64,000 bases of DNA. Origin: an uncultured Fibrobacterota bacterium. Its GTDB lineage: Bacteria > Fibrobacterota > Fibrobacteria > Fibrobacterales > Fibrobacteraceae. The stretch spans positions 1 to 64,000 of the forward strand of contig CAIRAY010000147.1 of the NCBI GenBank assembly GCA_903876665.1. The letters run 5' to 3'. Shown piece by piece: positions 5,970-64,000 of this stretch. The notes below the pieces were generated by a model that saw only the letters and a list, made by a program, of their open reading frames with translations, was not told the origin of the DNA and did no database searches. Position 1 is the stretch's first letter; the number at the start of each line of letters is the position of its first letter. Made by a program: the position numbers and the translations under genes.

Positions 5970-6025
5970 TTTCCCATCCTATCATCGTCAATGGTATTGC
6001 GACATGCAAAGAATTTATGGATTTT

Positions 6026-6099
6026 GATGCCCGGCTTTCCTGTCATGCTGGCTTTCCTGTCATGCTGGCTTTCCTGTCATGCCCGGCACGGGCATGACA
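6026..6099. repeat. Intergenic repeat locus A. It holds three tandem 17-bp units (gctttcctgtcatgcYg) ending in a perfect palindrome tgtcatgcccg-gca-cgggcatgaca at 6075-6099 (subtype I of the ATGCCCG-N3-CGGGCAT family).
   Basis: Read directly from the sequence. It lies between the Trx-like gene (ends 5969) and the redox-active disulfide protein 2 gene (ends 6143), both on the minus strand. Confidence 0.85.
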
Positions 6100-8756: not shown

Positions 8757-9623
8757 ATGAAAACTTCAGCGAAATTTTTAACCCGTTTTGGCGTGTTGTG
8801 TGTAATGTTGATCCTGGCCTGCGACGGAGCCGGGCTACGCGATAACCCCACAGACTCCGGAGCAGTCGGCTACCCAGAAAGCTCGGCCCAGGCATCATCG
8901 GCCCAGGTATCTTCAGCCCAGTCCTCGTCAGCACAGGGGTCATCTTCGCCCGTTTCCTCTTCCCTGAATTCATCGTCCCAGGCTTCTTCGTCAACCCCTT
9001 CATCGTCCCAGGTTTCCTCATCCACATCCTCGTCCTCGTCGCAAGCGTTGCCATCCTCTTCGAGCCTAGTTCTTTCTTCCTCCTCCAGCGCATCCTCCTG
9101 CAGGGATTCCGACCCTTCGGGTTCCGTGACGGACTGCCGAGATAGCATTGAGTATAAAACAACCACCATCGGCGGAAAAGTTTGGATGGGTGAAAACTTG
9201 CAATTCGCTCCCTCAACTGGTTCAACCTGGTGTTACAAAGATTCCATCGCCAATTGCGGGAAATTTGGTCGTTTATACGATTATGCCACCGCAGAAACCG
9301 CGTGCATGGAAGGTTGGCACTTGCCAACTAATGTCGAGTGGAGCCAATTGGCTAGTGATGCCGGTGCCAATCTCAAATCAACACAATGGAACACCAACTC
9401 CATTCCAAGTTCTGATTCCTATAAGTTTTCCGCAATAGCGGCACCCTTCTTGGACTCACTTCCTCAATTCCAAAATTTGGATAATGCTTTTTGGTGGGCA
9501 GCCACCCCATCCGCTACTGGAGCAAATAGGGATATTCGATGGATGGCCGGTGGTTCTGCCTCTCTTGGCTCAAGTTCCCGACTGATGTCTTATGGTCTTT
9601 CGGTGCGGTGTATTCAGGATTAA
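8757..9623 (+). CDS. Lipoprotein with a Ser-rich linker and a C-terminal Fibrobacter succinogenes major paralogous domain (TIGR02145-like)
   Basis: Lipobox LILAC, SSAQ-type Ser-rich low-complexity linker, and a domain with WMGENLQF...WCY...C...RLYDYATAE...VRCIQD ending at the C-terminus. Confidence 0.8.
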   Translation: MKTSAKFLTRFGVLCVMLILACDGAGLRDNPTDSGAVGYPESSAQASSAQVSSAQSSSAQGSSSPVSSSLNSSSQASSSTPSSSQVSSSTSSSSSQALPSSSSLVLSSSSSASSCRDSDPSGSVTDCRDSIEYKTTTIGGKVWMGENLQFAPSTGSTWCYKDSIANCGKFGRLYDYATAETACMEGWHLPTNVEWSQLASDAGANLKSTQWNTNSIPSSDSYKFSAIAAPFLDSLPQFQNLDNAFWWAATPSATGANRDIRWMAGGSASLGSSSRLMSYGLSVRCIQD

Positions 9624-11723: not shown

Positions 11724-12062
11724 ATGAGCCAACTTCTTTGCGTGACGCCTGCCGATTCCCCCATTGGAGAAATCCACCATTTTGAAATACTCTGGAAGGG
11801 CATGAAAATGCCCGGCCTCGCCTTTCTGGATCGCCAGGGCAGCTGGTTTGCCTGTATCAATCGCTGCAAACACTGGGCTGAAGCCTTGGATACCGAAAGC
11901 CCGGCAATTTATGCCACGGGTACCGGCTTGGTCGTGTGCTCCATCCATGGGGCAAAATTCCGCCTGGAAGATGGCCTTTGCGTAACGGGACCCTGCCACG
12001 GATCTGCGCTGGATGTCATTCCCGTAGAATGGCGAGAAGGCGAACTTTGGTCGATAAAGTAA
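11724..12062 (+). CDS. Rieske [2Fe-2S] domain protein. The ORF is open from 11673; the start at 11724 (MSQLL...) is preferred.
   Basis: CKH ... CSIHGAKF ligand boxes (CxH / CxxH) in a protein of about 112 aa, which is typical Rieske ferredoxin size. Confidence 0.55.
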   Translation: MSQLLCVTPADSPIGEIHHFEILWKGMKMPGLAFLDRQGSWFACINRCKHWAEALDTESPAIYATGTGLVVCSIHGAKFRLEDGLCVTGPCHGSALDVIPVEWREGELWSIK

Positions 12063-12193: not shown

Positions 12194-12964
12194 TTAAAAT
12201 TTTAATGCGACTTGCAAGCCTGGGGCAAGGCTTCCCTCTGAAATCGGAATTACCGAGGGACTCACAGACAACTTGAGGTTTCCGTATGCATTGTGAGCTC
12301 GGATGCCGCTAGCCGTAAATTGGTACAACGCCATTCCGTGGGCTAGGACACCCAAACAAACAAGGATCCCCCCACTGACCGCTGCTAGCTTGGCATCCGA
12401 GTCACTCCCACCATCTGACCCGGGTATAGCTGCAAGGGCCAGCAATCCACCTCCAATAGCTAGGCAACCCCAGCTGGATTGGTAAAGTCCCCATCCGGGA
12501 ACACGGACAAGGGAATCCTGGCCCAACGCGTTTACAGATCTGGTCATCATGTTGGCTCCTATCCCATTTACGGGAATACCCGCAAGTAGGGTAAGGACCC
12601 CTATCCATAAAGAGGTTTGGCGATAATTTTCATGATCAGAAAAAGCCATAATTGTTCCACCCACATTCATTCCCAGTCCAATGATTTGAATGCCCGAACC
12701 CAAGGCAAGCTTCATTTTCAAATTGAAAATTTCGCTTTGGGTTAATGCAACGACAATTTTTGGCTTCAATATATTGCCGTTCCTGCCTGAAACACTTTGT
12801 GTGTCAAGTATCTGCGATCCCCGTGCCGGGGATGCCCCTTCGACCTCGTTGACTGTTATAATTGCCGGAGCATTTCCATTCAATTGTGAAGCATCTACTG
12901 TGTCAATGGACACTTCAGCAGTACACACCGTTTGGATGATGAGAATCAGAAAAATACACATAAA
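12194..12964 (-). CDS. Hypothetical Gly-rich secreted/membrane protein (possible outer-membrane protein, C-terminal ...LQVALKF). The track ORF extends to 13099 across palindromic repeats; the start at MCIFLILIIQTVCTA is preferred.
   Basis: Signal-peptide-like N-terminus, Gly/Ala-rich hydrophobic segments, and a C-terminal aromatic residue. Confidence 0.4.
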   Translation of the reverse strand, partial: FMCIFLILIIQTVCTAEVSIDTVDASQLNGNAPAIITVNEVEGASPARGSQILDTQSVSGRNGNILKPKIVVALTQSEIFNLKMKLALGSGIQIIGLGMNVGGTIMAFSDHENYRQTSLWIGVLTLLAGIPVNGIGANMMTRSVNALGQDSLVRVPGWGLYQSSWGCLAIGGGLLALAAIPGSDGGSDSDAKLAAVSGGILVCLGVLAHGMALYQFTASGIRAHNAYGNLKLSVSPSVIPISEGSLAPGLQVALKF

Positions 12965-13000: not shown

Positions 13001-13080
13001 GCGGCATGAACCTGTCATGCCCGGAACGGGCATCGCCGTGCATCTACCAGAGTTCTGTGATGCCCGTGCCGGGCATGACA
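13001..13080. repeat. Intergenic repeat locus B. It holds two members of the palindrome family: tgtcatgcccg-gaa-cgggcat (13014-13034, subtype I) and tgtgatgcccg-tgc-cgggcatgaca (13056-13080, subtype II).
   Basis: Read directly from the sequence, downstream of argJ on the minus strand. Confidence 0.85.
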
Positions 13081-14823: not shown

Positions 14824-15789
14824 ATGATCCGCGTATTCCTGGGTGACGACGACTTTTCACGTATCCGCGCGCTAAATCGCGCAGTGGATTCTGCACTGGG
14901 TGCCCGCAAGGATGATCCCTTGGCGCGTCAAGTGTTATACGCCGGAGACTCCTCCTTTCCCGATGTTGCAGCCAAAGTGGTCGAATTCTGTAGCTCCATT
15001 TCCATGTTTTCCCCGGAGCTTGCGGTTGTCCTTCGCCGGGTGGAGGCCCTGAAGGCCGTTGATCAGGAATACCTCTCCAAATGGTTGTTGACCAAGCCCG
15101 AATGCCTGCTCTTCATTGACGGCGCAAAGATTGACGGCCGTAGCGAATTTTCCAAAGTCCTCGCCAAGGTCTGCAAGATTGAAAAGTTCGAGCCTCCCAA
15201 GGATTACAAGATGGCGGAGTGGATCACCAACCACTGCCGCGAAGAATTCTCCCGGCCAATCCAGCCCGAGGCCGCCAAATACTTGGCAGATGCCATTGGC
15301 GATGAATTGTCCGTTCTCCATAGCGAAATCGAGAAGCTACTCACCGCGGTGCCCGACACCAAAACCATTAGTTTCGATCTCGTTTCCCGCCTAATCGTTC
15401 CTCAACGCATTTTGGTTCCCTGGGAAATCCAGAAATCCTTCGGCGACCGCGACCCCAAAGCCTTCACCCAGATGCTCCGGCGCTTACTGGACCAAGGGAT
15501 TGATCCGATCCCCATTACCAGCAACCTGTTCACCCACGCCGTCAAGCTGATGCACACCCAGACCATGATCGCAGAAAAGCGTTCTGCGGACGAAATTGCC
15601 AAGGCGCTTGGCCTGCAAACATTTTTATACAACATCCAAAATCTACCTACCCAGGCTTCCAAATGGACTCCCGCAGTCCTTTCCCGGGTCATCCAGAGAC
15701 TCGGTGAAATCTACTTTGGGCTAAAAGCAAGTGCCTACGCCAACGACGCAGAATTTGAGCTTGCCGTTTGTGCCTTGGTCGTGCGGTAA
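14824..15789 (+). CDS. holA: DNA polymerase III delta subunit
   Basis: 321 aa with N-terminal Rossmann-like and C-terminal helical domains in a HolA-like pattern. It lies immediately downstream of greA. Confidence 0.65.
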   Translation: MIRVFLGDDDFSRIRALNRAVDSALGARKDDPLARQVLYAGDSSFPDVAAKVVEFCSSISMFSPELAVVLRRVEALKAVDQEYLSKWLLTKPECLLFIDGAKIDGRSEFSKVLAKVCKIEKFEPPKDYKMAEWITNHCREEFSRPIQPEAAKYLADAIGDELSVLHSEIEKLLTAVPDTKTISFDLVSRLIVPQRILVPWEIQKSFGDRDPKAFTQMLRRLLDQGIDPIPITSNLFTHAVKLMHTQTMIAEKRSADEIAKALGLQTFLYNIQNLPTQASKWTPAVLSRVIQRLGEIYFGLKASAYANDAEFELAVCALVVR

Positions 15790-15826
15790 ATCCTCAGCTC
15801 AATTTTTTGCCGTGGTTTTGTTGTCT

Positions 15827-16057
15827 TTTCCCGGTTGTCTTTGTCATGCCCGGTTGTTTTGTCATGCCCGGTTGTTTTGTCATGCCCGGCACGGGCATCA
15901 CCGGTGCTTGTTGCTGCATTGTCCGGGCGCGATGCGGTGATGGCCGTTCCGGCCATGACAGGCTTGTTGCAGTAAGGCCATTCCCCAGCTGACTTTGTCA
16001 TGCCCGGTTGTTTTGTCATGCCCGGCACGGCCGGAACAGGGGGTGCCGGGCCTGACA
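15827..16057. repeat. Intergenic repeat locus C. It holds 2.5 tandem 18-bp units (ttgtcatgcccggttgtt), the palindrome atgcccg-gca-cgggcat (15882-15898), the palindromes caccggtg and ggccg-ttc-cggcc, and a second half-site array at 15994-16057 ending in the inverted repeat gcccggcac...gtgccgggc.
   Basis: Read directly from the sequence, between holA and pepA. The repeat generates the spurious ORFs MPGCFVMPGCFVMPG. Confidence 0.85.
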
Positions 16058-16146
16058 CTTTAAAAACATCCTGTTTGCATTTTAATGCGTTTGCCCTGAG
16101 GTAAATCCTTCTATTTTCCCATTTCCTGCACTTCTTTTTATCTTTT

Positions 16147-17805
16147 GTGGATATGTCAATTCAAATTTCTTCGAAGTCCGTTTCTCCCGCGAGTATCGAG
16201 GTCGTTTTTTACTTGCGCAAAACCCCCCTTTTTCCCTCGGCCCTCAATCTTTCCGAGGGCGAAAAAACAAGCCTTCTGGACATTTTGCAAAAGACCACCG
16301 ATGGCCCCTATGGCGATGGTGATTTTGCCGATGTGAAAGGTCGTCTATTTATTCTCCTGGATGTGGCCAAGGAAAAGGCCCTTTCCCGACTTGAGAACCT
16401 CCGTTGCGCAGCCTTTCGGCTTTCTGGCCTGGCCCGTAAGCGACATTTTTCCTCCGTATTGCTCAACCTGACCGAAGCCTCGCCCGAAGATTGCTCCGCC
16501 ATCATTGCCGGGCTACGCTATGGCGAATACTCGTTTAGCAAATACAAATCCAAGCCCAAGAAAATCTTTGAATCCAATTTTGAACTGGTCGCTGGCACAA
16601 AATCCGAGCAGATGAAAACCCTTGCCAGCCAAGTGAGCACAGTCATTGGGCAGGTTCAGGTCGCCCGTAACCTAGTAAACGAACCTGGTTCGATCCTGAC
16701 TCCGCAACAGCTCGTCGCTCAAGCTGTGGCGCTCGGAAAATCCCACGGTCTCAAAGTTTCCGTCAAGAATGCGGCCCAATTGCAGAAGGAAGGCTACGAA
16801 GGCCTGATCTCCGTGGGCAAAGGCAGCCCAAATCCGCCTGCACTGGTCACTCTGAGCTACCAGCCCCGCACCCGCAGGCCCAATCTTCATTTGGGCCTGC
16901 TCGGCAAAGGGTTGACCTTTGATACGGGCGGAATTTCCCTGAAGCCCGCCACGGACATGTGGGAAATGAAAATGGACATGGCTGGAGCCGCTGCGGCCCT
17001 CGCAGGAATTTGCGCAATTTCCAGTCTTAAGCTCCCTATTGCGGTCACCGCTGTCCTCTGTATTGCGGAAAACAGGCCCTCGGGTCACGCCCAGCTTCCG
17101 GGCGATATTTTTACCGCCAAGAACGGGAAGACCGTGATGGTGGACAACACCGATGCAGAAGGTCGCTTGGTTCTCACTGATGGCCTTTGGGAATGTGGTG
17201 CACTCGGGGTGACGCACCTGGTCGATTTAGCCACCCTTACCGGTGCAGTAATCCGCGCCCTGGGATCCTCCGTTGCCGGTCTTTTCACCAATAGTCTTGC
17301 CATGGGTGAGCTGGTGCTCGAAAGCGGACAAGCCTGCGGTGAAAAATTCTGGCCCCTGCCTCTGGAACGGGAATATCTCGAAGGAATCCAGGACAAGGTG
17401 GCCGACCTCAAAAATGTGAGCGGAGAAGTCGGCGCCATTTCGGCCGCCCTTTTCCTTGCCGAATTCGTTCCTCCTGGTATCGCCTGGGCCCATTTGGACA
17501 TCGCCGGAACGGCGTTCACCAAAAAAACCTGGAAGTACATCGAACACGGCGCCACCGGTTTTGGCGTACAAAGTCTGGTTGAAATTGCCAAGCGCCTATC
17601 CGATTCCGCGCGCACCGCTCCCATGGCGCCTCCGCTCGACCCCGAGACCATCCTTCCCATGGGAGGCAAGCATCGGGGACGCCCACCCAAGGCCCGCGCA
17701 GCCTCCGTTCCTCCGAGTACCCTCGCCCCTAAACGGCGGGGACGCCCACCCAAAAACCTGGCTCCGCAGGCTCAACGCCGTCGTGGCCGCCCTCCCAAGA
17801 AGTAA
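16147..17805 (+). CDS. pepA: Leucyl aminopeptidase (M17 family) with a C-terminal tail of three AT-hook-like RGRPPK motifs
   Basis: M17 signature NTDAEGRLVLTDGLWE. The C-terminus reads GGKHRGRPPKARAAS...KRRGRPPKNLAPQAQRRRGRPPKK. Confidence 0.85.
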   Translation: MDMSIQISSKSVSPASIEVVFYLRKTPLFPSALNLSEGEKTSLLDILQKTTDGPYGDGDFADVKGRLFILLDVAKEKALSRLENLRCAAFRLSGLARKRHFSSVLLNLTEASPEDCSAIIAGLRYGEYSFSKYKSKPKKIFESNFELVAGTKSEQMKTLASQVSTVIGQVQVARNLVNEPGSILTPQQLVAQAVALGKSHGLKVSVKNAAQLQKEGYEGLISVGKGSPNPPALVTLSYQPRTRRPNLHLGLLGKGLTFDTGGISLKPATDMWEMKMDMAGAAAALAGICAISSLKLPIAVTAVLCIAENRPSGHAQLPGDIFTAKNGKTVMVDNTDAEGRLVLTDGLWECGALGVTHLVDLATLTGAVIRALGSSVAGLFTNSLAMGELVLESGQACGEKFWPLPLEREYLEGIQDKVADLKNVSGEVGAISAALFLAEFVPPGIAWAHLDIAGTAFTKKTWKYIEHGATGFGVQSLVEIAKRLSDSARTAPMAPPLDPETILPMGGKHRGRPPKARAASVPPSTLAPKRRGRPPKNLAPQAQRRRGRPPKK

Positions 17806-23484: not shown

Positions 23485-23509
23485 GTGTGATGCCCGTGCC
23501 GGGCATGAT
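23485..23509. repeat. Palindrome-family member D (subtype II): tgtgatgcccg-tgc-cgggcatgata, between the convergent zinc-ribbon gene and the hybrid histidine kinase gene.
   Basis: Read directly from the sequence. It shares 22 of 25 positions with the 13056-13080 copy. Confidence 0.85.
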
Positions 23510-23541
23510 AACCGGAGTAGCCCAACAGCATTGGAGCTAGG

Positions 23542-30407: not shown

Positions 30408-30531
30408 GGGAAAAATATAGCTTAGTGCACCGTGCAGAATAGGTGATAATTAGGGAGTCGCAGGGCAAAGGCATTGCCGGGCACCCTGCGGTAATCCCCC
30501 CTTCGGGGGACGACAATCCAAGTATACCCGG

Positions 30532-31011
30532 CTATGCGGCCTTGGGCTTGACCTTCTCGATATCGAACAGCTTGCGCCATGGCTCCATCTTGAAGCGGTT
30601 TCGGACTTCTCCCGCCACGATGGTCTGATAGGAAATGGCTACCAGCATGGCATCGGGAAGGTTGTTGATCCGCTTCACAAAGTTGCTGCTGGATACGCCT
30701 GGTTCCTGCAAATCGACCACAAAGGTATCCCATTCATCCAGGTCCATCACCTTGATTGCCTCTTCCACCGAGCGCACGGACTTGATCGTTGCACCGGCCA
30801 GGAGGTCCTCGAGAACTTCAATGGTGAGAGCCCGATGGGAGTCATCCAATTCCAGCACCAGGACCTTGCGGCTCGAGTAATCGTGCGGGATCAAAGCAGA
30901 ATCGATGGCGGATTCGGGAGCTGCCTGGTCCAGGATCTCGTCATCAAAGTCATCTAAATTGTCGTCGTCATTTTCTTCGATCTTTTTGCGGGCCATAGAG
31001 CCTCCATTCAT
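30532..31011 (-). CDS. Single-domain response-regulator receiver-like protein with an acidic N-terminal tail (orphan REC)
   Basis: KVLVLELDDSHRA...FVVDL...AISYQ, a CheY-like alpha/beta pattern. Its start overlaps the pepP stop by 4 bp. Confidence 0.5.
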   Translation of the reverse strand: MNGGSMARKKIEENDDDNLDDFDDEILDQAAPESAIDSALIPHDYSSRKVLVLELDDSHRALTIEVLEDLLAGATIKSVRSVEEAIKVMDLDEWDTFVVDLQEPGVSSSNFVKRINNLPDAMLVAISYQTIVAGEVRNRFKMEPWRKLFDIEKVKPKAA

Positions 31012-46211: not shown

Positions 46212-46532
46212 TTGAGAACTCCATTGGAGGGTTGGTGGAAACTTAAGTGGAAATATAAGAAGGATCAAGGGAAAACAGATCAATCAAATCGTGGATAATC
46301 GGGTATTTCCTAAGTCCGCTAATGGTAATCTCTACAAATAATCCGATATATTGACAATATAGAGAATCTTTAAATGTACCTTCACAAACAGAGTATTTGC
46401 GTATAAAAAACGATAAAAACCCCAATATTTGCAATAATTTGATATTTTTTAATATTCTTCGTACCTTTTGATTAGTACAAAAAATCCTCTTTGCGGGTTG
46501 ATGAATGCAAAAATTCTGGCTATATTCCCAAA

Positions 46533-47372
46533 ATGGATTCAACGGCCATCAACATTTTCGGTTATTCGGATTTCCGCGCGTACCTCCGGGATTACTACTC
46601 GAAGCGCCACAGCTTGGATCGTTCCTTCTCCCATCGCTTCCTCGCTCAAAAACTTGGAGACAAGTCTCCCTCCTTCCTGCAAAAGCTACTCGATGATGAG
46701 CGTCGCCTTAGTCCCCATCAAATTGAAATACTCATTCATTTGTGCCGACTCGAAGAACACGAAGCCAAGTATTTTCGGGTGCTTTATCTCTACTCATCGG
46801 CACCAGGAAGGACCGAGCGGGAATTATATCTAGAACAACTCATATCCCTGAACCACACGCCAAGACGCCAATTGGAGCTAGATCTTTTCGAATTCTATCG
46901 TCACTGGTACCATCCCGCCTTGCGATCCATACTCAGCGTTGTGGATGTTCAAGATGATTTTCGCATGGTCACCAAAATGATCCGGCCTCGCATTTCGGTC
47001 AATCAGGTCAAGGATTCCATTGCCTTGATGGCCCGCTTGGAAATCATTCAAAAAGATGCGAATGGTTACTGGAAGCCCGCGAGCGAGGCTCTATTCGTCA
47101 AAGACAATTTCAACCAGGCCATTATTCAGAATTTCCGCCAGCAATGCCTGGATCTCGCCTCGCAGGCTCTGGTTCAGGGCCATGGCAAAGAAGATTATCA
47201 TTTTTCCACCGGAACCATGAGCGTCAGCTCGGACGCCCATCGCCGAATTTTTGACAAGCTCGAAAAATTCCGCGCCGAAATACGGTCCATTGTGCGGAAA
47301 GATTCCCTTCCGCCCACCAAAGTCATTCAATTACAAACTCAGATTTTCCCATTAATGGAGAACGACAAATGA
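46533..47372 (+). CDS. Fibrobacter paralogous-family protein (TIGR02147-like), a putative HTH regulator, paralog 1
   Basis: Homologous to the 53339-54184 product: FxDYRAY(L/F)R(D/E)xY...LDR(S/R)FSHRFL(A/S)(Q/E)KLGDKSPSF conserved. Start at MDSTAINIF. Confidence 0.8.
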   Translation: MDSTAINIFGYSDFRAYLRDYYSKRHSLDRSFSHRFLAQKLGDKSPSFLQKLLDDERRLSPHQIEILIHLCRLEEHEAKYFRVLYLYSSAPGRTERELYLEQLISLNHTPRRQLELDLFEFYRHWYHPALRSILSVVDVQDDFRMVTKMIRPRISVNQVKDSIALMARLEIIQKDANGYWKPASEALFVKDNFNQAIIQNFRQQCLDLASQALVQGHGKEDYHFSTGTMSVSSDAHRRIFDKLEKFRAEIRSIVRKDSLPPTKVIQLQTQIFPLMENDK

Positions 47373-49483
47373 ATTCAATTTCCGCCAAACCCAAATTGGA
47401 ACGACTGGGGATTTTCGCCCTGATCGTAGGTATTCTCCTTGCGCAAAGTTGCAGCCTCCATGACCCCGAGACGACCAGCGGGATCATCGATGAAACCGAG
47501 ACATTTATTACTGGCACCGTGGTGGATCCGGACGGGAAACCTGTCGCGGGAGCTCGGGTGATGCTTCACGGGGACAGCCTGGGGAGTACTTCGGCAAGCC
47601 TCGCGAAGGTAAGCGAACGGAATTCCGAAGGAACGTTGGAAACCCTGTCGGACAAAAACGGCGATTACCGCTTCGCGGGCCATTTCCGTAGCAAGGCCTA
47701 TCTGGAAGTGGACCTGAACGATTCTCTCGGTTTTCTCGACAGCATTGATTTTTCCACCGGGAAAGCTTTTGAGCGGGAGAACGATGTTCTAAAAGGAAAG
47801 GGTAGCCTGACGGTTCAAACCCTCGATTTGGATAGCGGGGCTGTCATTTGGATTCCTCAAATCGGGACTTCGCTTTTCGTTTCTGGCGATGGTAAAAGCC
47901 TAATCATCATGGCTCCTCCTGGAAATCTGACCATAATCATCATTAATGGCAATGATCGCCAACCCCTTCCCCTGCCTGTGGTGATCGAAGAAAAAGAATC
48001 CACCACGGTTGATCCCGCCAAGGAACTTGAACAAACCTCCAGCGCCAACCAAATGACCGATCTGCGTGATGGCAGAAAATACCGTACCGTTGCCATTGGA
48101 AATCAAATTTGGATGGCTGAAAACCTGAATTACGGCATCATGGATACGAGCAAGTCCAAACTCCAGTCCGGGAACCAAAAATACTGCTACCAGAACGATT
48201 CCACAAATTGCAATAACGAGGGTGGCCTTTATCAATGGCACCAAGCCATGAACCTTCCCGGCTCCTGTTCCACGACAGGCTGTAGCGCACAAATTCAGGT
48301 GCCAAGCCACCAAGGCATTTGCCCAGACGGCTGGCAAATGCCCTCTAAGGCGGACTGGGATTTTCTCGGCACAACTTTGGGAGGAGCCTCAACGGCTGGT
48401 TTCTCCATGAAACTCAACACCACAGGGGACGCCTCCTTCGATGCCACCCTCTATAACGATGGAAATAGCTCGGGCTTTTCAGCCTTCCCTGCTGGAATCC
48501 GCTATTTTAACGGAACCTTCGCCTATCACGCAGGCGATGTCCGCTCCAGCGCAACCATCTGGGAAGCCACCGAAGAATCCTCGACCAATTACATGAATGC
48601 TTGGCGACGTGTGGTGAACAACGAAGGCACCGAGCTTGCTCGCCTCTATAATCATGCTAAACAAGATGCATTTTCGGTGCGCTGCCTGAAAACCTTAGTC
48701 GGAACGTCTTCTCAGGCCACGTCGTCTTCGGTCACTCCATCTTCATCCTCGGTGATTCCACCTTCATCTTCGGTCACCACCCCATCCTCGTCCTCACAGC
48801 TTGTCGCATCCTCCTCCTCAACCTTGACAGCCAATACCATGAGGGATTCTCGCGACAATCAAATTTATGCGACGGTTAAAATTGGCACTCAGGTCTGGAT
48901 GGCTGAAAATCTGAATTATGGAACCATGGACACGAGCTCAAGCACGTTACAAAGTGGAGACCAGAAGTCATGTTACCAGAATCTCGAGGCAAATTGCGAT
49001 ACCGAAGGTGGATTATACCAATGGCATCAGGCCATGAACCTTCCCGGCTCTTGCTCCACCACCGGCTGCAGCGCACAAATCAATTTGCCCAACCATCAGG
49101 GCCTCTGCCCAACGGGCTGGCACATGCCCTCCAAAACCGATTGGGATTTGTTGGGAACAACCTTGGGAGGAGCGGCAACGGCGGGGTTCTCGATGAAGCT
49201 CAACAACACCGGCGACGCCTCTTACGATGCCGCGATTTACAATGATGGCAATTCTTCCGGGTTTTCTGCCTTTCCTGCGGGAATCCGCTACTTCAACGGA
49301 ACTTTCGCTTATCACGGTGGCGAGGTTCGTTCGAGCGCAACCATCTGGGAAGCCACCGAAGAATCCTCAACCTATTATATGAATGCTTGGCGACGTGTGG
49401 TGAACAACGAAGGCACCGAGCTTGCTCGCCTGTATAATCACGCCAAACGAGACGCATTCTCGGTTCGGTGCGTCCAGGACTAG
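47369..49483 (+). CDS. Lipoprotein with an N-terminal CarboxypepD_reg-like domain, a Ser-rich linker and two tandem Fibrobacter succinogenes major paralogous domains (TIGR02145-like)
   Basis: Lipobox ILLAQSC, an IDETETFITGTVVDPDGKPVAGARV segment, and two copies of ...IWMAENLNYG...GGLYQWHQAMNLPGSCSTTGCSAQI...AFSVRC(L/V)xx. It overlaps the upstream gene by 4 bp. Confidence 0.8.
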   Translation: MNSISAKPKLERLGIFALIVGILLAQSCSLHDPETTSGIIDETETFITGTVVDPDGKPVAGARVMLHGDSLGSTSASLAKVSERNSEGTLETLSDKNGDYRFAGHFRSKAYLEVDLNDSLGFLDSIDFSTGKAFERENDVLKGKGSLTVQTLDLDSGAVIWIPQIGTSLFVSGDGKSLIIMAPPGNLTIIIINGNDRQPLPLPVVIEEKESTTVDPAKELEQTSSANQMTDLRDGRKYRTVAIGNQIWMAENLNYGIMDTSKSKLQSGNQKYCYQNDSTNCNNEGGLYQWHQAMNLPGSCSTTGCSAQIQVPSHQGICPDGWQMPSKADWDFLGTTLGGASTAGFSMKLNTTGDASFDATLYNDGNSSGFSAFPAGIRYFNGTFAYHAGDVRSSATIWEATEESSTNYMNAWRRVVNNEGTELARLYNHAKQDAFSVRCLKTLVGTSSQATSSSVTPSSSSVIPPSSSVTTPSSSSQLVASSSSTLTANTMRDSRDNQIYATVKIGTQVWMAENLNYGTMDTSSSTLQSGDQKSCYQNLEANCDTEGGLYQWHQAMNLPGSCSTTGCSAQINLPNHQGLCPTGWHMPSKTDWDLLGTTLGGAATAGFSMKLNNTGDASYDAAIYNDGNSSGFSAFPAGIRYFNGTFAYHGGEVRSSATIWEATEESSTYYMNAWRRVVNNEGTELARLYNHAKRDAFSVRCVQD

Positions 49484-53338: not shown

Positions 53339-54184
53339 GTGACGAAATCCGACATTAGCATTTTCAAATTTGTGGATTACCGCGCGTACTTCCGAGAAAG
53401 CTATGCCACCCAGAATCGCTTGGACCGTCGTTTCTCCCATCGATTCCTTTCCGAAAAACTTGGGGACAAATCCCCCTCTTTTTTCCTCAAAGTAATTCAA
53501 GGACAGCGTCGCCTTTCCGATGAGCAGCTCGAGAAAATCGGCAAACTGTTCAATTTAGACCGCGAAGAATTCAGGTATCTTCAAACCATGTACCGCTATG
53601 GAATCGCCAAGGATAATGCCGAGCGGGAATACCACCTGGGGCTCATGGTCGCCATATCCTCCCCTTCCAGGAAGGAACTGGGGAGCGAGGCTTCGGATTT
53701 TTATTCCGAATGGTTCCATTCTGCCGTGCGAGCCATGCTCGGCCTGCTTGACATCGGAGATGACCTTGGCCCTTTAATCCGCCGCATGAAACCTACCATT
53801 TCGATCATACAGGCGCGCCAGTCCCTACAGCTCCTGGAAAGACTTGGCTTGATCGAGAAAAAACCGACTGGCTTTTGGAAACCCAAAGAAAACTCCATTT
53901 TTTTCAAATCCCCAATTCATGACGCCACCATGCGATCCTATCGTTTGAAGTGCCTGGACCTTGCAAAAATGGCCGTATCCGCTCCCCAATCCGCCAATCC
54001 CCCGCAATTTTTTACCACCACCATGACCGTATCCGATGAGGCGATGGCAAAAATCCAGCGCAACCTTGCCAAATTCCGTGCAGAGGTGCGAACCATCGTT
54101 TCCCGGGACAACCTTCCCCAAACTCGCGTTCTCCAGCTACAAGACGTCCTCCTTTCCCTCTCGGACGATCTGGGCACAACCTAG
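53339..54184 (+). CDS. Fibrobacter paralogous-family protein (TIGR02147-like), a putative HTH regulator, paralog 2
   Basis: See paralog 1. MTKSDISIFKFVDYRAYFRESY...LDRRFSHRFLSEKLGDKSPSF. Confidence 0.8.
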   Translation: MTKSDISIFKFVDYRAYFRESYATQNRLDRRFSHRFLSEKLGDKSPSFFLKVIQGQRRLSDEQLEKIGKLFNLDREEFRYLQTMYRYGIAKDNAEREYHLGLMVAISSPSRKELGSEASDFYSEWFHSAVRAMLGLLDIGDDLGPLIRRMKPTISIIQARQSLQLLERLGLIEKKPTGFWKPKENSIFFKSPIHDATMRSYRLKCLDLAKMAVSAPQSANPPQFFTTTMTVSDEAMAKIQRNLAKFRAEVRTIVSRDNLPQTRVLQLQDVLLSLSDDLGTT

Positions 54185-54192
54185 GCAACAAA

Positions 54193-55407
54193 ATGACAAC
54201 CCACTTCAAACTTTTTCTCTCACTAGCCGTAACCTTTTCCATTTTTGCATGCTCGCAAAAAAAAGAGGTCGCCGGAGGGTATATCGATGAAACCGAAACG
54301 GCTCTTTCGGGTCGCCTGATTGGCCCCCACGGTGAGCCCATCGCCTTCCAAAAAGTTACCGTATTCAAAGACTTCCGTTCCGGAATCGGAACCCTCTTTG
54401 ATTCTGTGGGCATATCCACCACCACGGACAAAGATGGCCACTTCCAACTTGAAACCCTGAGCCCTGGCCAATGGTTCCTCAGTGCCATCACCGCAGATTC
54501 CCTGGGAATCATGCAACCAATCCAGCTAGATTTGCAGGATAACCGCCTTGACACCTTGTCGCCACTGGGGATCCTGGTCATCAAATCCATTCCGGGCAGC
54601 TTAAGCCAAAAGTTCTTCATCCCCCAGCTGGGACGAATTATCGACCTAGAAAATCTAGATTCTGTGTGTCTTCCGATTCCCGCAGGGTCCTATGAACTGT
54701 TCCCGATGGAAAACCAGACACCCATTATCGCAGACAGCCTACCCTCGATCACCGTACTTTCCGGGCAAATGGCCTCCATCCAGCTTGAAGCCCCTCCCAT
54801 CCTATTATGGAGCGCCCTCGCCAATTGGACATTCCAGAATGCCTTGGCCCCTTGGTCGGACACAAGTGGCTTCAACCATGGCGCCAATGTTGAATTTGGA
54901 GCCCCCATCCGATCCGTGCAGGGAGAGCTGGTCCTCGATGGGCAATCGGGTTTGCGTATCGCATTGACATCCGCCCTTGCCCCCGTAGACTTTATGGTGC
55001 GTGGGTCCCTTCAATCCGCCGTTTCACCTGTGCCCGTTCAGAATTTGATCTGTTCCGAGAGCGCTCTGCCCGAGTCCGATTCCTGGTGCCTCCGCCTCCG
55101 TAATCAAGATTCCCTGGTTTTTTATTTCCGCGATGGACAAACCAGCGAGGATTCCCTCGTTGCCTTTTTGGAGCCAGAAGTCTTGCAAGAATTCCGCGCA
55201 GAGGTTTATCATGGCACAGCCCGCCTTTGGGTGGCAGGAATCCTTCTCACAAGCAAAAACACGCTGGCTATGGACTTCTCGGACCTTTCCGAAGATTTCA
55301 CTTTCGGCTATAGGTCCGCGAGCCCTGCCTCGGATCGACTCTTTTCTGGGATTATCGATTATCTCAGTATCAACGGGATTACCCCACCGATTGAATCCAA
55401 CAACTGA
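54193..55407 (+). CDS. Lipoprotein with a CarboxypepD_reg-like N-terminal domain and a C-terminal LamG/concanavalin-like domain
   Basis: Lipobox SIFAC, a GYIDETETALSGRLIGPHGEPIA segment (shared with the 47369 lipoprotein), and a C-terminal ...FSGIIDYLSINGI typical of Laminin_G_3. Confidence 0.6.
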   Translation: MTTHFKLFLSLAVTFSIFACSQKKEVAGGYIDETETALSGRLIGPHGEPIAFQKVTVFKDFRSGIGTLFDSVGISTTTDKDGHFQLETLSPGQWFLSAITADSLGIMQPIQLDLQDNRLDTLSPLGILVIKSIPGSLSQKFFIPQLGRIIDLENLDSVCLPIPAGSYELFPMENQTPIIADSLPSITVLSGQMASIQLEAPPILLWSALANWTFQNALAPWSDTSGFNHGANVEFGAPIRSVQGELVLDGQSGLRIALTSALAPVDFMVRGSLQSAVSPVPVQNLICSESALPESDSWCLRLRNQDSLVFYFRDGQTSEDSLVAFLEPEVLQEFRAEVYHGTARLWVAGILLTSKNTLAMDFSDLSEDFTFGYRSASPASDRLFSGIIDYLSINGITPPIESNN

Positions 55408-61922: not shown

Positions 61923-62621
61923 ATGCAAAACCTCCCCGATCTCGCAGTTCTTTGGTCTCTTGGGCTGATTGCTGTGATCATTTCGGTGAACGCCAAGGGA
62001 ACCGCCCGGATTTCCTTGTCGTGGTTTTTTACTGCCGCAGTAGTGACCCTTTGTATTTCCGCTTCCATCCTCAAGGTGTCGGCCCTCAAAAACCGCCTGC
62101 TCGATGGCGCCTCCGCCGAACCTCCCGCAGAGATGTCTGCGCCAGTCAATCCTGTCCCGGCCCAGCCCAGCAATACCAAGACCCAAACCCCCGGCCCTTC
62201 TTCGGCTTCGGTCAGTTCTACGGACCAAACCAAGGACTACTTGGAACAGGCATCCCGGATTGTGGGTACCGCCCTCGGGTGCGCGGGCGCCATCAACTCC
62301 TTTGACATTGATGCCCTGGCCAACATCGCGGATTCCCAATACGAGCGGGAACAATCACGCGCGCTCAGCCTGCGCAATCAAAGCTCAAGCATCAGCCGCC
62401 AGGTCAAATCCCTCCAAGTCCCCCAGAATCTTGCCTGGCTGCAGGCCGATCTGGACAAAGCCACGGAAAATTTACGCCTGGCCGGTTGGGCGGTACACGC
62501 CTATTTTGCGGCTGAAAATAATGACGATGAAAAAGCGATGCAGGATCAATTTACTCGATATTCACGTACGGCTCAAACCGATCTACGCTTGATTCAACAA
62601 GAACTTTTACGCCAACGATAA
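61923..62621 (+). CDS. Hypothetical membrane-anchored protein (2 N-terminal TM helices, a Pro/Ser-rich linker, and a C-terminal helical domain)
   Basis: The call rests on ORF structure and hydrophobicity only. Confidence 0.4.
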   Translation: MQNLPDLAVLWSLGLIAVIISVNAKGTARISLSWFFTAAVVTLCISASILKVSALKNRLLDGASAEPPAEMSAPVNPVPAQPSNTKTQTPGPSSASVSSTDQTKDYLEQASRIVGTALGCAGAINSFDIDALANIADSQYEREQSRALSLRNQSSSISRQVKSLQVPQNLAWLQADLDKATENLRLAGWAVHAYFAAENNDDEKAMQDQFTRYSRTAQTDLRLIQQELLRQR

Positions 62622-62634
62622 AACCGGAGAAATC

Positions 62635-63015
62635 ATGTCCGAAATTCGCGACAACCTGAAATACACCACCGATCATGAATGGGCCCTCATCGAAGGCGGC
62701 ATTGCCGTGATTGGAATTACCGACCACGCCCAATCCGAACTCGGGGACATCGTTTTTGTTGACCTTCCCAAGGTCGGCGACCAGGCCAAAGCCGGAGAAA
62801 GCATTGGCACCATTGAGGCGGTGAAGACCGTCGCTGAAATTTATTCTCCACTCACCGGTGAAATCGTCGAGGTTAACACAGCCCTTGCCGATTCCGCCTC
62901 CATCATGAACGCAGATGCCTACGGAAATGGCTGGATCGCAAAGATCCGCATTTCTAATCCGTCCGAACTCGAAACCCTTCTCGATGCCAAGAGCTACGCA
63001 GCTCACATCGGTTAA
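62635..63015 (+). CDS. gcvH: Glycine cleavage system H protein
   Basis: Lipoyl-lysine motif GTIEAVKTVAEIYSP, 126 aa. Confidence 0.9.
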   Translation: MSEIRDNLKYTTDHEWALIEGGIAVIGITDHAQSELGDIVFVDLPKVGDQAKAGESIGTIEAVKTVAEIYSPLTGEIVEVNTALADSASIMNADAYGNGWIAKIRISNPSELETLLDAKSYAAHIG

Positions 63016-63050
63016 CCCGTCCACAACCCCAATCAAAAGGTCAAATAGCC

Positions 63051-64000
63051 ATGAGTCGTAATGTTGCCATAGTCGGAGCCACCGGAGCGGTGGGTCAGGA
63101 ATTACTTTCCATTCTCGCGGAACGAAAGTTTCCCATGAAGAGCCTGAAACTATTGGCATCCAAACGGTCGGCTGGAAAATCCGTCCATTTCATGGGCAAG
63201 GATCTCGTGATTGAAGAGCTCACCCACGACTCCTTCCAGGGTGTGGATTTGGTGCTCTCTTCCGCAGGTGGTTCCATTTCCAAGGAATTCATGCCATCGG
63301 CCGTCAAAGCTGGTGCGGTGGTGGTTGACAACACCTCGTACTTCCGCATGGACCCTACCGTTCCCCTGGTGATCCCCGAGGTCAATCCTCAGGCCATCAA
63401 GGGCCACAAGGGAATCATTGCAAACCCCAATTGCTCCACCATCATCATGCTGGTGCCCCTGTATCCATTGCACAAGGCCATCGGCATCAAGCGCGTCCAG
63501 GCCTGCACCTACCAGGCCGCATCGGGTGCTGGCGCCCAGGCCATGGAAGAATTGCGCCTCGAATCCGTCGCAGTCGCCAATGGCGAATCCTTTGAGCGCA
63601 CCGTCATCCCGTACCCCTACGCATTCAACCTCTTCCCGCACAACGCCCCCTACAACGACGGAAGCGAAGCCAAGGCCAAGCTCCACGCTCCCGTAGGTTA
63701 CTGCGAAGAAGAGTGGAAAATGGTGGCCGAAACCGAAAAGATCCTCGCGGATTCCGTGATCAAAGTCAATGCCACCTGCGTCCGCGTTCCCGTTCTGCGG
63801 GCTCATTCCGAAGCGCTGAACATTGAATTCGCCCGCCCCACCACCACCGAAGAAATCTACGCCATCCTCTCCAAAGCAGCCGGCGTGCAAATCCTCGAAG
63901 AGCCTTCCAAAAATCGTTGGCCCATGCCAATCGATGCCAGCGGAAAGGATCCCGTACTCGTTGGACGCGTGCGCAAAGACTTGTCCCGCGAAAACACCTT
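63051..64000 (+). CDS. asd: Aspartate-semialdehyde dehydrogenase, 3' partial (runs off the window end)
   Basis: NAD(P)-binding VAIVGATGAVGQ, the active-site NPNCSTI motif and the ASGAGA motif. It is open to the last base of the window. Confidence 0.9.
   Translation, partial: MSRNVAIVGATGAVGQELLSILAERKFPMKSLKLLASKRSAGKSVHFMGKDLVIEELTHDSFQGVDLVLSSAGGSISKEFMPSAVKAGAVVVDNTSYFRMDPTVPLVIPEVNPQAIKGHKGIIANPNCSTIIMLVPLYPLHKAIGIKRVQACTYQAASGAGAQAMEELRLESVAVANGESFERTVIPYPYAFNLFPHNAPYNDGSEAKAKLHAPVGYCEEEWKMVAETEKILADSVIKVNATCVRVPVLRAHSEALNIEFARPTTTEEIYAILSKAAGVQILEEPSKNRWPMPIDASGKDPVLVGRVRKDLSRENT

Follow-up and report, generated by a model that had tools for sequence, protein, structure and literature searches.

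A cluster of putative CGTC/TGTC-tagged repetitive extragenic palindromes between holA and pepA of an uncultured Fibrobacterota bacterium

The intergenic region between holA and pepA in a 64,000-nucleotide stretch of DNA from an uncultured Fibrobacterota bacterium (Fibrobacteraceae; GCA_903876665.1, contig CAIRAY010000147.1, positions 1 to 64,000 of the forward strand; hereafter the window) contains a block of tandem units and palindromes that we refer to as locus C. We conclude, with a probability of roughly 0.78, that locus C is a cluster of CGTC/TGTC-tagged repetitive extragenic palindromes (REPs), composed of two tag-outward dimers and enlarged by local duplication and tandem repeats. A REP cluster is an ordinary kind of bacterial repeat; the unusual detail is the reproducible presence of half-palindrome arrays. 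An earlier note on this DNA had described a composite of tandem 18-bp units and nested palindromes. That the repeat is dispersed, and that locus C is its largest locus, held up on analysis, but the unit is better described as a tagged REP stem-loop whose tag and left arm are repeated in tandem. This assignment would extend the CGTC/TGTC-tagged REP superfamily to an uncultured freshwater Fibrobacterota lineage.

The elementary unit is ~25 bp long and consists of a TGTC tag, a G+C-rich 7-bp stem starting with AT, a 3-nt loop (gca or gaa) and a CAC(A/C) tail, with the consensus TGTC-ATGCCCG-gca-CGGGCAT-CAC. Its size, perfect 7-bp stem and asymmetric ends are those of REPs in general. The window contains 12 matches to the half-site TGTCATGCCCGG with at most one mismatch (0.57 expected), 14 matches to the core palindrome pattern (0.36 expected), and six occurrences of the tag followed by a perfect hairpin, compared with 0.065 expected from shuffles. 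A covariance model (CM) built from the window copies detected seven strong copies as well as diverged ones. Altogether, 8-10 copies are present at 5-6 loci within 64 kb, where fewer than one would be expected, and the positions of the oriented copies are 6075, 13013(+)/13080(-), 15878(+)/15960(-), 16014(+)/16057(-), a rearranged pair, and 23510(-). The tag is TGTC in six of eight window copies and TATC or GGGC in the others, and the 25-bp REP core is the only part common to different loci. All clear loci, namely locus C and four sister loci, are intergenic, lying 5-45 nt past stop codons in the ~7% non-coding part of the window (~93% is coding); the sole exception to an extragenic location is a doubtful copy at 12812 within a predicted open reading frame (ORF).

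Locus C begins 31-38 nt past the stop codon of holA, which encodes the DNA polymerase III delta subunit (14824-15789, + strand; TIGR01128, 157.9 bits against a cut-off of 80; Pfam DNA_pol3_delta_C), and precedes the gene for a PepA-like M17 leucyl aminopeptidase (16153-17805, + strand; Pfam Peptidase_M17, 364 bits). The exact PepA protein starting from the ATG at 16153 is present on other contigs, and the version starting from the GTG at 16147 is not on record in other assemblies. The tandem units, palindromes and second array described in the earlier note are all present between 15820 and 16057, but its statement that the composite fills almost the entire gap was too strong, as ~65% of the 357 bp from the holA stop (15789) to the GTG (16147) is occupied.

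The block opens with one or more degenerate leading units of the tandem array, GTTGTCTTTTCCCGGTTGTCTT (15820-15841, + strand), which contain a direct repeat (15820-15828 and 15834-15842) and resemble the array unit without GTCATG. The 18-bp units TTGTCATGCCCGGTTGTT span 15841-15889, and Tandem Repeats Finder (TRF) delimits the first array as 15830-15889 with a period of 18, 3.3 copies and 97% matches. Within it, three direct copies of the tag plus left arm, TGTCATGCCCGG, lie on the + strand (15842-15889) as exact matches at 15842, 15860 and 15878, 18 bp apart and separated by the spacer TTGTTT; the third doubles as the left arm of the first complete element, REP D (TGTC ATGCCCG gca CGGGCAT CACC; 15878-15902, + strand; CM score 45.1 bits), whose core palindrome is at 15878-15901. 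The short palindrome CACCGGTG follows at 15899-15906, and a second, GGCCG-TTC-CGGCC, is at 15942-15954, within the inverted element REP E (TGTC ATGGCCG gaa CGGCCAT CACC; 15936-15960, - strand; 41.6 bits). At stem position 4 of REP E, C-G has been replaced by G-C, a compensatory change. Together D and E form a tag-outward (HH) dimer (15878-15960) in which 15878-15903 pairs with 15935-15960, as two 26-nt arms that the repeat finder scores as 88% complementary, around a 31-nt spacer; this pairing was absent from the earlier account. A second array with its 5' flank (15981-16025, + strand) matches 15827-15871 at 91% identity and has its half-sites at 15996 and 16014. Without the flank, the array occupies 15996-16025 and ends in an inverted repeat (16014-16028 and 16043-16057; 15-nt arms, 14-nt spacer) that forms the compact hairpin F-G (16014-16057), TGTCATGCCCGGCAC, 14 nt, GTGCCGGGC(C/A)TGACA, which we read as a rearranged tag-outward dimer. 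The variable position is 16052, where the window has C and two contigs from other samples (L061 and L062) have A; the A gives both perfect arm complementarity and a consensus half-site.

The potential of the block to form hairpins, proposed earlier, was borne out by folding. The D-E dimer is predicted to fold as a single long bulged hairpin with an RNA minimum free energy (MFE) of -48.5 kcal/mol (z -4.65), and the DNA fold contains this hairpin too; the F-G hairpin has an MFE of -29.9 kcal/mol (z -4.79). All dimers in the window fold as long bulged hairpins with z of about -4.6 to -6.8. The large cruciform in duplex DNA that had also been suggested is unlikely, since spacers of 31 nt and 14 nt disfavour cruciform extrusion.

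The sister loci show the same unit in different surroundings. Locus A (6024-6099, + strand) consists of GATGCCCGG, three copies of CTTTCC plus TGTCATGC(T/CC)GG, and then a perfect 25-bp palindrome, TGTCATGCCCGGCACGGGCATGACA; TRF reports its array as 6033-6082, with a period of 17, 2.9 copies and 100% matches. Its architecture is that of locus C, but with a different spacer (CTTTCC rather than TTGTTT), and the array is oriented antisense to its neighbouring genes. Locus B-C is a tag-outward dimer (13013-13080; 45.9 and 42.7 bits; MFE -42.3 kcal/mol, z -6.83) that starts 21 nt downstream of the argJ stop. Locus H is a single REP, TATC ATGCCCG gca CGGGCAT CACA (23486-23510, - strand; 41.1 bits), located between convergent genes 5 nt past a stop codon. 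A diverged member, TGTC GTCCCCC gaag GGGGGAT TAC (30489-30515, - strand; 18 bits, E 0.006), is intergenic, 17 nt past the stop of the ORF at 30532-31011. Membership is uncertain for GGGC ATCCCCG gca CGGGGAT CGCAG (12812-12837, - strand; 33.7 bits). This hairpin, with its compensatory ATCCCCG/CGGGGAT arms, lies inside an ORF (12194-12961) that has no Pfam match, and represents either an intragenic REP or an over-called ORF. A further match at 12014 (TGTCATTCCCGT) sits in a small coding region and was rejected as a REP.

Related elements occupy partly the same positions in other members of the lineage. HolA has only 13 detectable homologues among 5.8 billion proteins, so the lineage is poorly sampled; we compared contigs of three relatives, L048, L049 and L050/L051 (HolA identity 59%, 58% and 46%), and the more distant L055, L057 and L059. 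The gene order argJ-greA-holA is conserved in relatives, and the gene after holA differs in every one. L048 carries GGTC ATTGCCG tgtaac CGGCAAT CTCCAC 35 nt past the holA stop, and L050/L051 carries two head-to-tail copies of TGTC ATTGCCC nnnn GGGCAAT CTCAC after holA, preceded on the 5' side by two diverged half-sites, (A/T)GTCATCGC, ~20 nt apart. In L049, CGTC/TGTC elements follow holA and a three-element cluster follows argJ, at the position of the window dimer 13013-13080; the elements of this relative include ACTGCCCG and ACTCCCGC. The tag followed by a perfect hairpin occurs five times in L048, L049 and L050 together (0.04 expected) and not at all in L055, L057 and L059. No match to the window half-site with up to two mismatches was found in the relatives, whose diverged versions appeared in the tag-plus-hairpin scan and in the DNA following holA; likewise, the window-based covariance model recovered only the closest of their copies (17.6 bits in L050 and 11.8 bits in L049). 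The stems of all 13 elements compared are fully paired, with changes on both sides at stem positions 2, 3, 4 and 7. The MAFFT alignment of all copies is not structure-aware and was not used for these pair counts. Co-evolution of the repeats with a lineage-specific, hairpin-recognising protein would be expected to leave such a pattern of species-specific, co-varying stems at partly conserved positions.

The same genome also holds a textbook member of the superfamily. On L064, a contig of this genome that reaches past the right end of the window, a canonical CGTC ATTCCCGC gtag GCGGGAAT CTA copy with an 8-bp stem and a 4-nt loop is present at L064:7403, ~2 kb beyond that end, and its core conforms to the Neisseria dRS3 consensus ATTCCCN8GGGAAT. 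The element (L064:7400-7430) overlaps the 3' end of pgpA and the TAG stop lies in the hairpin loop, so that the final codons of pgpA come from a REP. The sequence CGTCATTCACGCC, located 120 nt downstream, resembles a half-site.

REPs have been divided into GTAG-tagged and CGTC-tagged superfamilies (Di Nocera, De Gregorio & Rocco 2013, BMC Genomics 14:522; PMC3733652). According to that survey, CGTC-type elements carry the tag at one end only, with TGTC and CCTC variants allowed, and have an 8-9-bp stem whose first two positions are A and T, a 4-5-nt loop and a short unpaired tail of approximately CCA; HH dimers with 20-100-bp spacers predominate, head-to-tail pairs are rare, and no association with transposase genes is seen. 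Large clusters occur in Neisseria and Wolbachia, and dRS3 is classed as CGTC-1 (PMC3733652). The elements described here share with this superfamily, which includes Neisseria dRS3 and Rickettsia RPE-type units, the CGTC/TGTC tag, the G+C-rich stem starting with AT, the short loop and the short unpaired tail, as well as mostly tag-outward dimers, clusters in which units and their flanks are reiterated in tandem, an intergenic location, the lack of a linked transposase, and the textbook CGTC ATTCCCGC gtag GCGGGAAT copy in the same genome. The tag is mostly TGTC in the window, GGTC or TGTC in relatives, and CGTC at L064:7403 and in L049. Ten of 13 elements have AT at stem positions 1-2, and stems are 7 bp in the main family and 8 bp both in L049 and in the L064 copy. 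Loops of the main window family are 3 nt long (GCA or GAA), those of L050, L064 and the 30515 copy 4 nt, and those of L048 and L049 3-6 nt; tails read CAC(A/C) in the window, CTA in L064, and either CTCAC or CTCCA in the relatives. The three window dimers and the 3290/3376 dimer of L049 are tag-outward, and L050 has one head-to-tail pair. A local search found no transposase of any class, including RAYT and Y1/HUH types, among the ~55 ORFs of the window or the called genes of L048-L060, and in these surroundings no copy flanks a RAYT gene. Fibrobacterota is not among the phyla listed for CGTC repeats in the survey, and tandem arrays of the tag plus left arm are not described there.

Two other known systems resemble the window elements less closely. 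With the REP doublets forming hairpins (REPINs) that accompany RAYT genes (Bertels & Rainey 2011, PLoS Genet 7:e1002132; PMC3116915) and with E. coli REPs and bacterial interspersed mosaic elements (BIMEs), they share inverted doublets that fold into one long bulged hairpin, as at 13013-13080 and 15878-15960, an extragenic location, ordered clusters of tandem doublets plus flanks, and lineage-specific families that persist at orthologous sites. They differ from REPINs in that there is no GTAG tag here and no RAYT gene in the window or at the relatives' loci, and neither a GTAG/GTRG tag nor a cognate RAYT was found in the window. They differ from BIMEs in lacking the alternating grammar of Y and Z REPs and linkers. 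The second system is the neisserial intergenic mosaic element (NIME), built from dRS3 and RS elements; dRS3 (ATTCCCN8GGGAAT) is an integration target of a phage-encoded recombinase, and its arrays lie at syntenic positions (Bentley et al. 2007, PMC1797815). Like the present loci, NIMEs are arrays derived from a ~20-bp AT...CCC-N-GGG...AT inverted repeat, occupy syntenic intergenic positions in related species and are thought to be dynamic in copy number (PMC1797815). In NIMEs, by contrast, whole dRS3 units and 50-150-bp RS elements alternate over up to kilobases, whereas locus C reiterates half of a palindrome with a 6-nt spacer in a block of 230 bp.

The structure of locus C suggests how a REP cluster of this kind may have grown, and the earlier proposal of slippage or propagation of the element is the right class of explanation. 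Two tag-outward dimers now stand side by side, the first intact (15878-15960) and the second rearranged (16014-16057). The 5' flank, array and left arm are common to both halves (15827-15871 and 15981-16025, 91% identity), from which we infer that a ~150-bp segment comprising an array plus a dimer was duplicated once, after which the second copy would have lost most of the dimer interior. Within the halves, tandem amplification would have acted on an 18-bp unit of 6-7 nt of flank plus TGTC plus ATGCCCGG, with 97-100% identity among copies, most likely through slipped-strand mispairing or unequal exchange, with the hairpin as the point of nucleation. Slippage predicts a partial unit at the left boundary, and all arrays have one there, ending in CCCGG. 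According to the repeat finder, any one of the upstream half-sites is able to pair with the only right arm, so alternative hairpins could promote slippage.

Several observations weigh against this interpretation in whole or in part. The stem of 7 bp and loop of 3 nt in the window depart from the published 8-9 bp and 4-5 nt, and the tail is CAC where CCA was published. Slippage is the most likely origin of the arrays, but it is deduced from their structure, and unit numbers do not vary among near-clonal assemblies. Plain slippage also does not predict that the three arrays here (locus A and both halves of locus C) and that of L050 would all duplicate the same side of the palindrome, nor does it alone explain why arrays accompany three of eight copies. 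The dimer as a conserved mobile unit of the REPIN type is unsupported, because the spacers of the two intact doublets differ in length (~19 nt and 31-33 nt) and are unrelated in sequence, and the word mobile is itself an assumption, because no mobilising enzyme has been identified. The covariation table carries a bias, as the copies from relatives came from a scan that demanded perfect stems, and the genome-wide copy number is extrapolated from 64 kb plus ~3 kb beyond.

The one-sidedness of the arrays might be accounted for differently. The half-site arrays, at three places with two spacers and in a diverged form in a relative, invariably flank a complete palindrome on its tagged side, and they might be footprints of the copying of CGTC/TGTC-type REPs, for example by repeated nicking at the tag and then re-initiation or a strand transfer aborted at the hairpin. 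We regard this as improbable; if true, it would be the first mechanistic handle on a REP superfamily that has no known mobilising enzyme. Whatever their origin, half-palindrome arrays could be mined in complete genomes for clues to the propagation of this transposase-less class.

A different reading, which we hold to be possible though clearly the lesser one, is that the hairpins are host-selected RNA 3'-end elements, i.e., terminators, attenuators or barriers to 3'-5' exonucleases located after holA, argJ and other genes, and that the copies share a function and not mobility. The location of copies 5-45 nt downstream of stop codons would fit such elements, as would their recurrence after holA and argJ in relatives with 46-59% HolA identity, the perfect pairing of stems despite sequence turnover and the very stable folds. 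Relatives that lack a REP after argJ instead have a classical hairpin and T-run there (L048:8172-8273, L050:8082-8292 and L059:7080-7268), whereas the window and L049 have a REP dimer or cluster with no T-run. This is a point for the 3'-end reading, but it also shows that the clade uses ordinary terminators and that the REPs are something different. No T-run follows any REP copy in the window, so no copy is a hairpin placed directly before one, and a scan of the + strand from 15600 to 16300 found no intrinsic terminator (G+C-rich hairpin plus T-run), although canonical terminators exist elsewhere in the clade. A conserved unpaired tag and tail, tag-outward dimers, half-site arrays and the antisense array at locus A are not needed for a 3'-end element. 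The two readings are not truly exclusive, as a 3'-end function is compatible with exaptation of REPs. In enterobacteria, REPs have been linked to mRNA stabilisation or attenuation. If transcribed from holA, the hairpins of locus C could act as a decay barrier or attenuator in the holA 3' untranslated region or pepA leader, and any effect on neighbouring genes would probably be secondary. A scan of the same interval for sigma-70 promoters on the + strand found none, though the promoter types of this phylum may fall outside the scan.

Less likely is that the TGTCATGCCCGG half-sites are duplex binding or recombination sites for a sequence-specific protein, such as a dRS3-type recombinase, and that the arrays are multimerised sites. 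The 12-bp half-site is reiterated in both direct and inverted orientation, at 17-18-bp spacing and in three places with different spacers, and the closest described relatives, the dRS3 elements, are targets of phage-recombinase integration with syntenic arrays (PMC1797815). Yet no recombinase, phage or regulator gene lies nearby, the pattern has no match in viral contigs or plasmids, and the compensatory stem changes argue that pairing, and not a fixed duplex sequence, is conserved.

We consider it more doubtful still that a ~305-bp block (15795-16099) is one inserted non-autonomous element resembling a miniature inverted-repeat transposable element (MITE), with its target GGTAAATCC(T) duplicated at the 3' end of holA; an empty-site allele would then read ...GCGGTAAATCCTTCTATTTTCCC.... 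The basis for this reading is an exact 10-nt direct repeat, GGTAAATCCT, whose left copy (15785-15794, + strand) includes the holA stop codon and whose right copy (16100-16109, + strand) brackets the whole composite with it. By alignment, both copies belong to a 24-nt repeat with 79% identity (right side 16086-16109). Weak 9-nt terminal inverted repeats, TCAGCTCAA and TTGCCCTGA, are also present, and the gene after holA differs in every relative. A shared word as long as GGTAAATCCT arises in 34 of 2000 shuffles (1.7%), and p ~0.017 is unimpressive after the fact; similarity extending past the 10-mer is unlike a fresh target-site duplication. The pair is suggestive only, and we take it as a possible scar of an old insertion or duplication and not as support for a MITE. 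Moreover, the window contains no second copy of the ~305-bp block, the 25-bp REP core alone recurs, and REP units together with local duplication fully account for the internal structure.

Independent assemblies bear on whether the block is real and whether it varies. Contigs of the same organism from other samples and assemblers (L002, L004, L061, L062 and L063; populations at least 99.98% identical) cover locus C up to 16030 (L002 and L004) and from 15890 (L061) or 16004 (L062) onward into pepA, and the four are identical to the window over locus C except for the single-nucleotide polymorphism at 16052. The array unit numbers of 3 and 2 at locus C are the same in all assemblies, and L063, from another sample, carries an identical locus A. 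Thus, the variation in unit number envisaged earlier was not seen; as the populations are near-clonal, this is a weak test of stability, and active expansion is neither shown nor excluded. Contigs from other samples mostly break within the block, which accounts for short-read assemblies of this organism ending after holA. In two different samples the terminal 18 nt (L002:1771-1788 and L004:1221-1238) join 16030 back to 15895 (15895-15912), a junction explained either by a de Bruijn graph loop through a 37-nt repeat or by a variant in which the array plus dimer, ~136 bp, is present once more. Despite these breaks and the 18-nt loops ending L002 and L004, it is very improbable that assembly of the short-read metagenome produced the tandem and inverted structure artificially, by collapsing tangled repeats or joining them into a chimeric path: independent assemblies overlap over the whole locus and agree base for base but for one position, neither array (54 and 36 bp) is as long as a read, and locus A is identical in a second sample.

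Other identities for the block were considered and rejected. An ORF of MPGCFV repeats (15768-15992, + strand) overlaps the end of holA, and one gene caller placed a 103-aa minus-strand gene across locus C. The ORFs across the block have no significant Pfam match, the best E-value of the MPGCFV-repeat ORF being 0.17, in agreement with the earlier view that they are spurious; a coding repeat (MPGCFV)n was ruled out on this lack of a family match and on the overlap with holA. The block should be annotated as a REP cluster, neither a gene nor a regulatory RNA, although gene callers predict ORFs of 74-107 aa there. A CRISPR array was ruled out because the array spacers are identical, and a CRP-like operator because the TGTCA-N15-TGACA spacing is wrong for one. 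Rfam 15 gave no match at or above the gathering score in the window; the best in 15700-16250 reached 27 bits against a gathering score of 95, and the sub-threshold matches in this interval are hairpin look-alikes. An exact-sequence literature search for the repeat returned no match. Among 185,579 species genomes, 43 single, taxonomically scattered matches to a 19-nt core were found, which we attribute to chance since they have neither a half-site family nor similarity to the window, and a pattern scan of metagenomes yielded three unrelated single matches.

Elsewhere in the window, two paralogous gene pairs (46491-49483 and 53339-55407) are each led by a TIGR02147 (Fsuc_second/DUF4423) gene and have a CarboxypepD_reg-domain protein as their second gene. 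One of these CarboxypepD_reg proteins carries two FISUMP domains, and a further FISUMP protein is encoded at 8757-9623; the TIGR02147 and FISUMP families are typical of Fibrobacter, and the two TIGR02147 and two FISUMP paralogs point to a probably Fibrobacterota-like host. The minus-strand ORFs at 62551-63159 and 63150-63890 are probably not genes, as other assemblies call gcvH and asd on the + strand there. Finally, the Pfam M17 domain of PepA stops at residue 478, and the ~60-aa C-terminal extension that follows it (17650-17805) has three AT-hook-like RGRPPK motifs (..GGKHRGRPPKA..KRRGRPPKN..RRRGRPPKK*). The PepA of E. coli also binds DNA, as an accessory factor, which makes an appended DNA-binding tail a curious feature of the protein encoded next to locus C.

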